Shown: positions 7,320 through 11,163, counted from the first letter of the stretch. The stretch: 64,000 bases of DNA from Escherichia coli (GCF_050920415.1 NZ_CP169309.1); one strand, 5' to 3'. Program-made: numbers and translations. Notes: generated from the sequence alone by a model not told the origin.

Positions 7320-7613
7320 ATGCCAGCGCCTCAGTATGGTGCGGATGACCCGCGCCGCTGTTCCGGCAATTCCGTATCGGAGGTGCTGGATAAATTCAGG
7401 AAAAACTACGACCGGATAATGTCGCTACCGCAGGAAACGAAAGAGGAAAAGGAATTTCGTCACTGTATATGGCTTGCAGAGAAAGAAGAACGCGAGCGAA
7501 TTTACCAGACATCAATCCGACCATTCCGCAAAGCCACATATACCCACTTCCCTGAAATTGACCCGCGCCTGCGTAATTATCGATCACGCTATGGCGCTAT
7601 CAGTAATGACTGA
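7320..7613 (+). CDS. Hypothetical prophage protein (97 aa)
   Basis: ORF in the early-left operon; no family recognised. Confidence 0.4.
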
Positions 7614-7623
7614 GGAATTTACC

Positions 7624-7791
7624 ATGAGAGGACTTACATACAATCCCGGCATTCTTCCGGCAGAAATGATTATTCGCCAACGCGTAAAGCCAATGCCATC
7701 GAGAGAGGAATTGCTTAAAAGAAAGAGTTTCGGTTCTGTTAATGACAACAAATATCTGAATGCGATGTGGCGTAAAGGAGGCAAGCAGTGA
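7624..7791 (+). CDS. Hypothetical small prophage protein (55 aa)
   Basis: GAGGAA RBS before ATG 7624; the longer overlapping ORF from 7474 is in another frame relative to 7320-7613 and was not preferred. Confidence 0.35.
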
Positions 7792-8087
7792 GTGTATGTC
7801 TTATTGATAAACGTCGACGTGGGCAACAAATACCATCTGTTGAAATGCCGAATCACACATGGTTTTGCGTACTTGATATCGATGGTATGGATACGTTGGT
7901 TGACACTCGTCATTACTGCGATACCGCAACAGCTACTCCGGCGAAAGCAAAGAAAATGGCTGCTATGATAGAAAGCTGGACTCCACCTGATGGTTGGTGC
8001 AATGGGAATGATCGAGATTGGCACGAAAAAATGAAGGGCTATATCTGCGATTTTTTACGTAAATGCAACGGATTCAGGGTGATGTGA
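7788..8087 (+). CDS. Hypothetical prophage protein (99 aa, GTG start)
   Basis: AGGAGG RBS; start overlaps previous stop. Confidence 0.4.
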
Positions 8088-8088
8088 C

Positions 8089-8982
8089 ATGAGCGAGATT
8101 AACCATCAGGCACTGCGTGAGGCGGCGGAAAATGCAACTAAGGGGAGCTACATCGTAGGGCATACATCGGTCAATCAGCACGGTAATTTAACAGGAGTTT
8201 TTGTTTGTCAAAAATGGAAAGGAGAACCCGGAGGCGTGATTGCAGAATGTCATGTTAACTGCCTGGTTGAAACAGATGTTCAGGCTTATGCAAACGCTGA
8301 ATTTATTGCTGCCTTTAATCCAAATGTTGCGCTGGCGCTACTGGATGAACGGGAAAGAAACCAGCAATACATCAAACGCCGCGACCAGGAGAACGAGGAA
8401 ATTGCGCTAACGGTAGGGAAGCTGCGTGTTGAGCTGGAAGGCAAAGACAAGCTGATTGCAGAGCTTAGAAAACAATGCGCTGAATGGGAGCGAAAAGCAT
8501 TAAGCAACTTTGAAGAGTGTGCTGCGATGGCTGAACGTATCGAAGAGTTGCAGACAAAATCTGCACCAGATTCGTTTGGCATCATCGGTGAAAATATTCG
8601 AACACAGGATAATCGAATAACGTCAGACCCTATGTTTTGTGTGTATCAAAAGCGCGAAATCGTTGTTGATGCTGATTATGACTATGACCGGATTGTCTGG
8701 GTTGATGAAGATGGCAATGAAGCCAATAAACGCCAAAGTCGTCGTCTCGAACTACTTCACGAAAACTTTCGAGAGCCACCAGAAAAATGGCGGCGCGTTG
8801 CTGTGAAAGATATTGATGAATTCGTTACCTGCTGTTTCACCGAACAGGGTTGTAAAGACTACCTGGCAGTCAATGGTCACAATCTTCGCTTGCCATTTAT
8901 ATATGTAAAAAGCGGTTTCAGGAACGCTGAATATATCGGCATAAGAAACTGGCTTGCTGGCATTCGCATCAAAGGAGAGTGA
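8089..8982 (+). CDS. Ea22-like prophage protein (297 aa)
   Basis: N-terminus MSEINHQALREAAENATKG and central coiled-coil are typical of the ead/Ea22-like family as I recall it; lambda-like position. Confidence 0.5.
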   Translation: MSEINHQALREAAENATKGSYIVGHTSVNQHGNLTGVFVCQKWKGEPGGVIAECHVNCLVETDVQAYANAEFIAAFNPNVALALLDERERNQQYIKRRDQENEEIALTVGKLRVELEGKDKLIAELRKQCAEWERKALSNFEECAAMAERIEELQTKSAPDSFGIIGENIRTQDNRITSDPMFCVYQKREIVVDADYDYDRIVWVDEDGNEANKRQSRRLELLHENFREPPEKWRRVAVKDIDEFVTCCFTEQGCKDYLAVNGHNLRLPFIYVKSGFRNAEYIGIRNWLAGIRIKGE

Positions 8983-8983
8983 G

Positions 8984-9175
8984 ATGAATGGACAAATATC
9001 AATTGTTCGACCAGGAGCATGTGACGATCGCGAAATACGAATGATTATTCGTCTGGCGATGGGGAAAACAATAACAGCTCTCATTACTCCAGAAAATCTC
9101 GCATTAGCTTTAACCGGAAAGTCAGACCTGCCAGTGGAGCTAAAGCTGCGAAATGTTGAGATTAAGGTGAAATAG
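8984..9175 (+). CDS. Hypothetical small prophage protein (63 aa)
   Basis: AAGGAGAG RBS before ATG 8984. Confidence 0.35.
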   Translation: MNGQISIVRPGACDDREIRMIIRLAMGKTITALITPENLALALTGKSDLPVELKLRNVEIKVK

Positions 9176-9177
9176 CT

Positions 9178-10383
9178 ATGACCACTATTACCAAAGAACG
9201 TATCGAATTGTTCATTAAAAATCCGCTTGATAACGGACTTACTCGTGGCGAACAAATGGAACTGGCACGAATTGCACTGGCCTCGCTTGAGGCAGAGCCA
9301 GTTGGTGCATTCCACATTGCTGAACAGCAAGTTGACGGAACAAGTGACTATCTCAAGGATGGAGAATGGCCTATTGATAATGGGATTATTGAAGTCTACG
9401 CCGCTCCGCCAGTACCGGTAGTACCTGCTGCATTACCTGAGAACGACGATGAGGACGGGCATGACATTGATTATCTTGAGCCATCTGAAGTTTACGCGCT
9501 TGGGCGAACAGCTGGCTGGAACGCCTGCCGCGTCGCCATGCTTCAGTCCGGAAACTTTCTGGAAAACAAGAATTCGTCAACCAATAATTTTCGGGAAATC
9601 GCGGAAACGTCAACCAACTCTCCGGTAATTCCTGATGAGGTGTTGTCCGCAATCCGGGAGGTTGCCAGGATTCGCGCCGATTTCGATGATTTTGACGGTG
9701 ACAGGCGAGGTATCGGTGATTGTCTGGATGAGGCCGAGCAAGAGCTTATCGTTACCATTAACAAATATGCCAGTCAGTTGGCAGTAGAGCCGGTAGTGCC
9801 TGCTGTTCTGGAACGTTTGCGAACCATTGTAGCGGACCCACGCGCATTACCTCGCAGAAAAGAATGGGTTAGTGGGCAGCAGTACAGTTACGTACTTCTC
9901 GAAAACGTAGAAGCTATGGTTGATGAAGCCTGCCGTGCAGCCATGCTCTATGGTGCCGTACATGCAAGCCAGGCTTACAAGTTGCCACAAACGCAGTTTA
10001 AACAGGTTGCTGACCTCTACGAAATGCAATTTGATGACGGTCGCACTTGTACCTTTCACACTGATGCGCAAAAGGCTGTGCAATGGCTTCAGGCGTGCGA
10101 CGGAAACAGGGTTCAGGAATACGTTAAGCTGGAACGATTGCAGAACGCACTGTCTGGCAACTCTCCGGTAACTCCGGATGGTTGGATAAGCTGTAGTGAG
10201 CGAGTGCCAGAGGACGGTCAGCACGTAATTATTTTATGTGATGGCGCATTCGTTCTTTATGCGCAATATCGGGGCGGTGAGTTTTTTGATGTCGTCCGCA
10301 ATGGTGAGGAGTTCTTCGAAACGCAGAGCCGCAATGTAACCCACTGGATGCCGCTACCAGAACCGCCGCAGGAGGCGAAATGA
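9178..10383 (+). CDS. Hypothetical prophage protein with C-terminal DUF551-like motif (401 aa)
   Basis: C-terminal ...VTHWMPLPEPP resembles the DUF551 signature common in enterobacterial prophages. Confidence 0.45.
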   Translation: MTTITKERIELFIKNPLDNGLTRGEQMELARIALASLEAEPVGAFHIAEQQVDGTSDYLKDGEWPIDNGIIEVYAAPPVPVVPAALPENDDEDGHDIDYLEPSEVYALGRTAGWNACRVAMLQSGNFLENKNSSTNNFREIAETSTNSPVIPDEVLSAIREVARIRADFDDFDGDRRGIGDCLDEAEQELIVTINKYASQLAVEPVVPAVLERLRTIVADPRALPRRKEWVSGQQYSYVLLENVEAMVDEACRAAMLYGAVHASQAYKLPQTQFKQVADLYEMQFDDGRTCTFHTDAQKAVQWLQACDGNRVQEYVKLERLQNALSGNSPVTPDGWISCSERVPEDGQHVIILCDGAFVLYAQYRGGEFFDVVRNGEEFFETQSRNVTHWMPLPEPPQEAK

Positions 10384-10640
10384 TGAATGTAAAAGAGAAG
10401 GTTTTTCAGGTGATGCGTTCCCGGGCTGCCCTGCAAGATAAAGCTCTCGGCGGGGAATATCCATTCAGGATGGCAACCTGGAATCTGCGGTTGGCAATGG
10501 AGAAGGAATTTCCTGATGAAGAATGGCGTTCGGCAGATTTGCGCAAAATTCTTATGGAGATGGCTAAAGACGGAACAGTATCCAAAGATACCCATGCCAG
10601 CCGGATTGGTCAGGCGGTATGGAGACTGGAGGTGAGGTAA
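10380..10640 (+). CDS. Hypothetical prophage protein (86 aa)
   Basis: Start overlaps previous stop; stop overlaps next start. Confidence 0.4.
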   Translation: MMNVKEKVFQVMRSRAALQDKALGGEYPFRMATWNLRLAMEKEFPDEEWRSADLRKILMEMAKDGTVSKDTHASRIGQAVWRLEVR

Positions 10641-10924
10641 TGGCTAACCTGCAACTTGCCGTTAAATGTGAATACTTCGATGCCATGATTCGTGGAGAGA
10701 AAACGGAAGAGTATCGCTTGTGTAATGACTACTGGAATAAGCGAATTATGTTCCGCGAGTACGACCGCCTGATTATCACAAAGGGATATCCGAAGCGCGA
10801 CGACTCCAGTCGTAGAATTGACGTCCCGTATGACGGATATGAAATCAAGACAATCATACATCCACACTTCGGTGATAAACCGGTAAAGGTGTTCGCGATA
10901 AAGGTGAATATCGGCAATGAATAA
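10640..10924 (+). CDS. Hypothetical prophage protein (94 aa from ATG 10640)
   Basis: GGAGGTGAGG RBS before ATG 10640; TAATG coupling with the upstream gene. Confidence 0.4.
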   Translation: MANLQLAVKCEYFDAMIRGEKTEEYRLCNDYWNKRIMFREYDRLIITKGYPKRDDSSRRIDVPYDGYEIKTIIHPHFGDKPVKVFAIKVNIGNE

Positions 10925-10995
10925 CATCCTCGCACTCGCGGGGATTTCTTTTATCTGAACTCGCTACGGCGGGTTTTGTTTTATGGAGATGATAA

Positions 10996-11163
10996 ATGCA
11001 CTTCCGAGTCACAGGTGAATGGAATGGAGAGCCATTCAACAGAGTTATCGAAGCAGAGAACATCAACGACTGCTATGACCACTGGATGCTGTGGGCGCAG
11101 ATAGCACATGCAGACGTAACCAATATTCGAATTGAAGAACTGAAAGAACACCAAGCCGCCTGA
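10996..11163 (+). CDS. Small protein upstream of xis (55 aa)
   Basis: GGAG RBS; stop codon lies in the loop of terminator 11156-11176. Confidence 0.4.
   Translation: MHFRVTGEWNGEPFNRVIEAENINDCYDHWMLWAQIAHADVTNIRIEELKEHQAA

Follow-up and report, generated by a model that had tools for sequence, protein, structure and literature searches.

A nine-gene block ahead of xis in an Escherichia coli prophage is very probably the accessory end of a lambdoid early-left operon

What are the nine short genes that lie between a putative HNH endonuclease gene and xis in a 64,000-nucleotide stretch of Escherichia coli DNA (GCF_050920415.1, NZ_CP169309.1; this whole stretch is hereafter the window)? They occupy positions 7320 to 11163, and an earlier note on the same DNA described them as the equivalent of lambda's b2/ea region, as a set of coupled small open reading frames (ORFs) to which no function could be assigned, and as the kind of cargo that carries anti-defence or host-modulation genes. 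Our analysis indicates that the block very probably forms the distal accessory ('ea' or 'exo-xis') section of a lambdoid prophage's early-left operon, with the prophage located at the lambda attachment site by ybhC. It is not one functional unit: ORF1 goes with the recombination module upstream and ORF9 with the lambda int-xis module downstream. The block and its features are as follows.

7320..7613, plus strand: ORF1, Abc2 (anti-RecBCD protein 2) by homology, 97 amino acids; last gene of the recombination module
7624..7791, plus strand: ORF2, DUF2737, homologue of P22 orf56, 55 amino acids, basic, isoelectric point (pI) 10.7
7788..8087, plus strand: ORF3, DUF7739, 99 amino acids, GTG start overlapping the ORF2 stop; variable cargo
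8089..8982, plus strand: ORF4, Ead/Ea22 family, 297 amino acids, N-terminal region, coiled coil and portable C-terminal domain
8984..9175, plus strand: ORF5, phrog_1222, 63 amino acids; variable cargo
9178..10383, plus strand: ORF6, modular acidic protein of the P22 EaA type, 401 amino acids, C-terminal DUF551
10380..10640, plus strand: ORF7, 'eaa protein' phrog_2814, 86 amino acids; a lone EaA-type C-terminal module
10640..10924, plus strand: ORF8, predicted minimal ASCH / PUA-like fold, 94 amino acids; octapeptide G19-x-K21-x-x-E24-x-R26, GYP at 49-51, H74
10926-10945 and 10957-10976, plus strand: a tandem pair of hairpins, both with a T run behind them (consensus terminator scan and RNA fold)
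10996..11163, plus strand: ORF9, lambda orf55 (lambdap35), 55 amino acids, acidic

The setting of the block carries this assignment. Read from the left, the gene order in the window is a minus-strand cro-like gene, a plus-strand gene for a cI-type repressor (helix-turn-helix and S24 peptidase domains), a gene for an N-like antiterminator, an insertion sequence (IS) of the IS629 type, kil, genes for a Rad52/22-family annealing protein, a single-stranded DNA-binding protein (SSB) and an HNH-like nuclease, the nine ORFs, lambda-type xis (11203-11421) and int (11399-12469, both by Pfam), and an att core. The upstream recombination genes, the block, xis and int all lie on the plus strand, as do cI and N. 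The lambda att core, GCTTTTTTATACTAA, is present as an exact 15-bp copy at 12543-12557, and ybhC follows. This gene setting, together with the att core and ybhC, is why we assign the block to a lambdoid prophage that occupies the lambda attachment site, and to the distal part of its early-left operon. A Kil homologue (5229-5381; PF06301, E 4e-20) and the arginine-rich N-like antiterminator (1879-2184; a weak N peptide match, E 1e-3, under the Pfam cut-off) are consistent with a lambda-style early-left operon. Lying between phage recombination genes and xis, on the strand of early-left transcription, the block has the position of an int-proximal accessory block of the non-essential type, as the earlier note had proposed. 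The xis flank named there is likewise confirmed by Pfam; the HNH flank (6827-7306) matched phrog_2340 'endonuclease' (E 3e-47) but no Pfam family at E <= 0.001, and we call it HNH-like.

An ORF scan reproduced the nine plus-strand ORFs exactly at the coordinates given above. For four ORFs (7624-7791, 8984-9175, 10640-10924, and 7788-8087 with its GTG), the start used is internal to a longer mechanical ORF or is not ATG, and these four starts fit full-length PHROG or Pfam matches and RefSeq calls in related genomes. Packing is tight from the HNH-like gene through ORF8, with gaps of -4 to +13 nucleotides (nt) that agree with the description of coupled or overlapping short ORFs: +13 nt between the HNH-like gene and ORF1, then +10 (ORF1 to ORF2), -4 (ORF2 to ORF3, GTGA), +1 (ORF3 to ORF4), +1 (ORF4 to ORF5), +2 (ORF5 to ORF6), -4 (ORF6 to ORF7, ATGA) and -1 (ORF7 to ORF8). 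The last two junctions, ORF8 to ORF9 and ORF9 to xis, measure +71 and +39 nt. Shine-Dalgarno-like purine-rich runs (AGGAG, GAGG, AGGAGG, GGAGG) precede most starts. Every one of the nine ORFs matched a PHROG family (E 4e-37 to 2e-62), and seven of the nine exceeded a Pfam family cut-off. The exact protein sequences of ORF2-ORF9 are present in public collections, several of them from E. coli STEC_7v, and in DNA homologous to ORF6 substitutions concentrate at third codon positions of the plus frame (0.159 versus 0.06-0.07). Because of the PHROG and Pfam matches, the identical public proteins and this codon-position pattern, a nine-ORF block is far beyond chance. It is also an ordinary finding: a known kind of region, with known protein families and sequences for ORF2-ORF9 that had already been deposited.

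To which part of the lambda map does the block correspond? On the established map, lambda b2 lies between the tail-fibre genes and attP, opposite int. The block sits upstream of the att core (12543-12557), on its xis-int side, and for this reason we equate it with the lambda exo-xis and P22 ea regions rather than with b2. Of the two halves of the 'b2/ea' label, ea was apt, given the lambda exo-xis members ea22 and orf55 and the P22 members orf56, eaD and eaA that the block holds; b2 was on the wrong side of the att core.

Gene by gene, the block is syntenic with the ea region of P22 (abc2, orf56, eaE, orf45, eaF, eaD, eaI, eaA, eaG, eaC, xis, int), which likewise closes the early-left operon and reads in the same direction. 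P22 shares Abc2 (93% identity), orf56 (ORF2, 71% identity, with the same 10-nt spacing), parts of EaD (ORF4) and the N- and C-terminal modules of EaA (ORF6). Its recombination genes Abc1 and Erf are absent from the window, where a Rad52-type recombinase, an SSB and an HNH-like nuclease are found instead, and its eaE, eaF, eaI, eaG and eaC have no counterpart in the block at BLASTP E <= 0.01. Conversely, P22 lacks the DUF7739 gene, ORF5, ORF7 and the ASCH-like ORF8, and ORF3, ORF5 and ORF7 found neither a P22 nor a lambda counterpart at the thresholds used. The neighbouring xis and int are of the lambda type, unlike those of P22.

In lambda, the exo-xis region (orf60a, orf63, orf61, orf73, ea22, ea8.5, orf55) likewise lies between recombination genes and xis. 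It shares with the block the N-terminal region and coiled coil of Ea22 (44% identity), and DNA identity is 98-99% across orf55, xis, int and the att core. The block lacks homologues of orf60a, orf61, orf63, orf73 and ea8.5 (tblastn E <= 1e-3), and lambda carries Gam instead of Abc2. The best DNA matches were HK022 and P22-like (Lederbergvirus) prophages of E. coli, in segments only, with middle genes that vary from phage to phage. The gene order of vB_EcoP-720R6 (anti-RecBCD gene, small ORFs, Ea22, DUF551, ASCH-like gene, orf55, xis, int) matches that of the block. Neither a phage record nor a complete E. coli genome reached 80% cover of the 4.5 kb at a single place; the highest figures were 42% for HK022 (at 96.9% identity) and 57% for an E. 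coli chromosome.

Such patchy cover suggests a mosaic, and presence and absence of the nine genes across 160 related loci (80 IMG/VR loci anchored on Abc2 and 80 loci on ORF8) point the same way. Among the Abc2-anchored loci, ORF2 was found in nearly all, ORF9 in about half, ORF3 in ~20, ORF8 in ~16 and ORF5 in ~12, and ORF4 and ORF6 appeared only as domain fragments. Immediately upstream of ORF8, the 80 loci anchored on it carried at least 10 kinds of gene. Many of these genes end in a common junction peptide, '...PPQEVNRG', which was seen on six or more unrelated genes ahead of the ASCH-like gene (L091-L170) and also marks the end of ORF6. Thirty nt that span the ORF4/ORF5 junction (8956-8985) are identical to the 3' terminus of lambda ea22 and encode the peptide ...GIRIKGE followed by a stop. 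As judged from these loci, the outer genes (Abc2 and DUF2737 on one side, ORF8 and orf55 on the other) are the commoner ones and ORF3-ORF7 are domain-shuffled cargo; their variation across both sets of loci agrees with the suggestion of variable cargo in the earlier note. The region very probably evolves through exchange of modules at short conserved junctions.

Shuffling of this kind could also leave evolutionary debris, that is, recombination scars and orphan domain fragments with little current function, possibly in a defective prophage. ORF7, a rare gene, occurs elsewhere as the C-terminal domain of EaA-type proteins; the C-terminal half of ORF3 is found attached to other N-termini; and an IS element interrupts an early-left gene upstream. 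Against this, all of the ORFs are intact, have a ribosome-binding site and belong to protein families conserved across many genomes. Substitutions in ORF6 fall mainly at third codon positions, as noted above, and the C-terminal domain of ORF4 retains 54 invariant residues across genera. Lastly, the identical gene arrangement recurs on an independent IMG/VR contig (L008). We regard debris as an improbable account of the block.

The two ends of the block can each be assigned to a neighbouring module. ORF1 matched the Pfam family PF11043 over its full length (residues 1-97 of 97; 209.8 bits against a cut-off of 25) and PHROG 656, 'abc2 anti-RecBCD' (E 8e-55). It is 93% identical to P22 Abc2 over 97 of 97 residues, and phmmer aligned it with the Abc2 chains of the RecBCD-Abc2 cryo-electron microscopy entries PDB 8B1T and 8B1U (E 1.7e-57). 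Abc2 has been shown to dock on RecC, at the Chi-recognition domains, and to co-opt RecBCD rather than block it (PMC9836394). We conclude that ORF1 is Abc2, a homologue of a biochemically and structurally characterised RecBCD binder, with binding to RecC predicted by homology. A recent survey divides lambdoid recombination modules into four parts, an annealing protein, an SSB, a nuclease and an anti-RecBCD protein (PMC12315714), and here a four-part module spans 5636-7613: the Rad52/22-family annealing protein (5636-6343), the SSB (6344-6817), the HNH-like endonuclease (6827-7306) and Abc2. Because Abc2 completes this module, we group ORF1 functionally with the three genes upstream and not with the uncharacterised genes that follow it. 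RefSeq leaves the HNH-like ORF unannotated in its entry for a copy that is 100% identical (L004).

At the other end, blastn aligned window positions 10921-12557 with lambda 27,724-29,361 at 98.7% identity. Besides the att core, int and xis, this segment takes in orf55 with the spacer on its far side. ORF9 shares 98% identity with lambda Orf55 (the ORF at lambda 29118-29285), is followed by the same 39-nt spacing to xis, and also matched phrog_676; by these alignments it is lambda orf55 and belongs with the lambda int-xis module. Since 10921-12557 is lambda and the att core is exact, the prophage joins a P22/HK022-like early-left region to a true lambda integration module. The lambda-identical segment starts in the 71-nt gap ahead of ORF9, at the two tandem terminator-like hairpins with T runs (10926-10976); a third, strong GC hairpin with a T run (11153-11172) overlaps the ORF9 stop codon, 39 nt before xis. 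All three hairpins around ORF9 lie in the lambda-identical segment and may be terminators that are read through under N, or RNA-stability elements. Rfam gave no match for a structured RNA in the interval from ORF8 to xis, where the fold energy of 10915-11210 was not unusual (z = -1.25), or anywhere in the nine-gene block.

How might the block work? By analogy with lambda and P22, N-antiterminated transcription from pL would cover all nine genes together early on, after infection or induction, and most would be translationally coupled. ORF1 would dock on the Chi-recognition domains of RecC and turn RecBCD to the phage's own recombinase, as its homologue does. We infer that the uncharacterised genes encode small host-binding modulators, non-structural and non-essential, that tune the choice between lysis and lysogeny and host nucleic-acid transactions.

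ORF4 matched PF13935 (Ead/Ea22-like) with 114.7 bits (cut-off 27) over residues 2-134 and has the family's signature of an N-terminal region followed by a coiled coil. Identity is 44% to residues 1-122 of lambda Ea22, where the match ends at residue 122, and 67% to part of P22 EaD, with which ORF4 shares its coiled-coil part. Beyond the N-terminal region and coiled coil (residues ~1-150) lies a conserved, portable C-terminal domain (residues ~155-297). This domain is a separate family, phrog_3205, with 54 invariant positions in 28 sequences whose N-termini are unrelated, from Escherichia, Salmonella, Citrobacter, Enterobacter, Serratia and Hafnia. ORF4 does not contain the lambda Ea22-type C-terminal domain, whose fold has been solved by nuclear magnetic resonance; the two domains are unrelated, and ORF4 had no significant match among PDB sequences. 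Ea22 proteins are tetrameric and prolysogenic and have swapped C-terminal domains, as shown for lambda Ea22 and variants from Shiga toxin (Stx) phages (PMC7093339, PMC10834534). We conclude that ORF4 is probably an Ea22-type coiled-coil oligomer with a different, highly conserved C-terminal domain; both oligomerisation and a prolysogenic role are predicted by homology.

Do the uncharacterised genes of the block act as modulators of lysis-lysogeny and induction, as in the exo-xis regions of lambda and Stx phages, on host transcription or stress responses and not on immunity? Ea22 is prolysogenic, and the whole exo-xis region alters lysogenisation and induction (PMC7093339, PMC3824215); YfdS, a DUF551 protein, has been associated with oxidative-stress tolerance; and lambda Orf55, the equivalent of ORF9, has been modelled as an RNA polymerase binder resembling T7 Gp2 (PMC8614690). 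The Orf55 model is the only functional proposal for that protein and is explicitly speculative by its authors' own description. In addition, the C-terminal domain of ORF4 differs from those of the Ea22 proteins that have been assayed, and the five lambda exo-xis genes named above (orf60a to ea8.5) have no counterpart in the block at tblastn E <= 1e-3. We hold this explanation to be quite possible, at somewhat less than an even chance.

A second explanation, that the block is an anti-defence island in which, besides Abc2, at least one of ORF2-ORF9 directly inhibits host immunity, has ORF6 and ORF8 as its candidates. ORF6 matched PF04448 (DUF551; 75 bits, cut-off 22) at residues 335-398 and P22 EaA at 57% (residues 1-80) and 42% identity (residues 242-397). 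With PF13935 in ORF4, this match places both an Ea22-like and a DUF551 protein in the block, as the earlier note had it. The ORF6 family forms more than 8000 clusters at 90% identity, mostly with a single member, and ORF6 had no meaningful match among PDB sequences. On these alignments ORF6 is an EaA-type chain of shuffled modules with DUF551 at its end. ORF7 (phrog_2814, E 8.6e-52) corresponds to the C-terminus of a 384-residue EaA-type protein (P0341) whose N-terminal and middle modules match ORF6; it is rarer than any other gene of the block (4 of 85 Abc2 loci, 9 of 80 ORF8 loci).

ORF6 is very acidic (pI 4.5, net charge -32), which makes it a candidate DNA mimic; ORF8, from a PUA-like superfamily that includes modified-base readers, is a candidate for action on modified nucleic acid. 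The block also holds one known counter-defence gene, ORF3-ORF7 are variable cargo, and accessory regions of this sort are enriched in counter-defence genes and in triggers of abortive infection (bioRxiv 10.1101/2023.04.06.535777). The negative charge of ORF6 is, however, dispersed over linker-rich modules, with no single compact mimic-like domain. No characterised anti-defence family was matched: none of the nine proteins hit a PADLOC-DB family at E <= 0.01 or any NCBIfam model, and the PHROG label is 'unknown function' for every family but Abc2. We consider an anti-defence island rather unlikely. The suggestion of anti-defence cargo holds for one gene, Abc2, which acts against a hub of host defence and repair (RecBCD), and the broader idea of accessory cargo that may include genes for host modulation is a reasonable one.

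For ORF8, a fold and a plausible chemistry can be proposed. Its family is the broadest among those of the small ORFs: of the 150 best representatives taken at 50% identity, 95 belong to it, and 74 of these 95 are less than 60% identical to ORF8. In 35 representatives, G19, K21, E24, R26, W32, G49-Y50-P51 and H74 are invariant or nearly so. A profile scan with a narrower ORF8 alignment recovered only relatives that are 94-98% identical, and two divergent homologues could be viewed in context only over contigs of ~1 kb. ORF8 has the octapeptide GxKxxExR / GxKxxTxR, and its AlphaFold2 model, which is confident (predicted local distance difference test, pLDDT, 89.4), shows the ASCH beta-barrel fold. 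Neither ORF8 nor its profile had a meaningful match among PDB sequences, and ASCH was detected at E < 0.01 in only 2 of the 35 representatives.

YqfB of E. coli is an N4-acetylcytidine (ac4C) amidohydrolase (PMC6972931). In the YqfB sequence used for comparison, G-x-K-x-x-T-x-R occupies the same residue numbers as G-x-K-x-x-E-x-R in ORF8, and Glu74 stands where ORF8 has its conserved H74-P-H-F-G motif; YqfB is the longer protein (103 versus 94 residues). ASCH proteins also comprise a 'GKER' subgroup that includes T. thermophilus ASCH and human EOLA1, and a 2026 preprint describes 'GKER'-type proteins that deacetylate ac4C in tRNA, for which the Lys and Glu of the motif are required. Outside the motif, ASCH proteins have no significant sequence similarity to ORF8. 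By homology, ORF8 is a minimal ASCH enzyme-like domain with an intact Lys/Glu pair, for which such a chemistry is plausible. A bolder proposal is that ORF8 is an active minimal 'GKER' ASCH enzyme, produced early in infection or induction, that strips host RNA of N4-acetylcytidine or of a similar N4-acyl mark. This is a long shot; if it were true, the target in E. coli would be the wobble base of elongator tRNA-Met, and ORF8 would be a phage-encoded eraser of an RNA modification.

Several points weigh against this account of the block as a whole. For ORF8, the match to Pfam ASCH (PF04266) is below the cut-off (14.1 versus 21.2 bits, E 0.077) and covers only residues 6-28, and hhalign paired residues 11-26 with residues 11-26 of YqfB without significance (E 0.16). 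Because its sequence falls under the Pfam ASCH cut-off, we file ORF8 as an ASCH fold with an intact motif and assign it no activity. The AlphaFold2 model of ORF4 has low confidence (pLDDT 67), and its C-terminal domain has no significant fold match in the PDB. For ORF2, ORF3, ORF5, ORF6, ORF7 and the C-terminal domain of ORF4, any proposed function is read from position and family membership only.

Expression is a further point of this kind. The IS629-like element, a member of the IS3 family (1310 bp, 2891-4200), lies on the minus strand, in the opposite orientation, between the N-like gene and the recombination module. It may reduce or abolish pL transcription of everything downstream, including the nine-gene block, xis and int, and expression of the block in this prophage is argued by analogy only. 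The remainder of the prophage extends beyond the window; the analysis covered the part within it.

What does the analysis change? The statement that no function could be assigned no longer applies to ORF1 (Abc2), to ORF9 (lambda orf55) or to ORF8 (an ASCH fold with an intact motif). The value of the result is corrective: Abc2 should be read with the module of Rad52-type, SSB and HNH-like genes, and orf55 with the lambda int-xis module. The questions posed by the remaining core of seven genes, ORF2-ORF8, concern all lambdoid phages. Two leads emerge from this core, the ASCH-like ORF8 with its intact catalytic-type motif and the highly conserved C-terminal domain that ORF4 shares with many proteins of unrelated N-termini.

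The other small ORFs were characterised at the level of families. ORF2 matched PF10930 (DUF2737; 99.4 bits) and follows Abc2 in ~79 of the 80 Abc2-anchored loci. These loci are not independent, because all are at least 96% identical in Abc2. Virulent siphophages of the Jerseyvirus type, namely Salmonella phage dunkel (2941-3096; L087) and Escherichia phage Bas72 (2941-3102; L088), also have the conserved DUF2737 core (ORF2 residues 23-51); it lies there among clustered small genes, with lysis genes on one side and terminase genes on the other, and with no Abc2 nearby. An obligate partnership of DUF2737 with Abc2 was considered and rejected as a demonstrated relationship on both of these grounds; it is still possible. 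ORF3 matched PF24881 (DUF7739; 75.2 bits) and, over residues 1-99, phrog_1239. ORF5 matched phrog_1222 (E 6.5e-41) and no Pfam family in a profile scan, and its exact sequence is found on at least 1000 contigs.

At least one public record treats ORF2 and ORF3 as one fused product of 153 residues (P0334). In the window the two frames differ and overlap by GTGA, and a 1-nt indel or sequencing error probably accounts for the fusion there. Inside ORF6, a minus-strand ORF of 125 codons (9847-10224) matched phrog_23547 (E 2e-47). We rejected it as a gene, as substitutions track third positions of the plus frame; it is probably a mis-called antisense ORF, and phrog_23547 probably stems from such mis-calls. 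Four further long antisense ORFs had no match.

The IS629-like element is bounded by 25-bp inverted repeats (TGAACCGCCCCGGG...) and a 3-bp target duplication (ATC), and carries overlapping transposase ORFs (3820-4146 and 2933-3820) with an ALIL frameshift pseudoknot at 3749-3865 (122 bits). Its excision in silico restores an early-left ORF of ~322 amino acids (phrog_1376).

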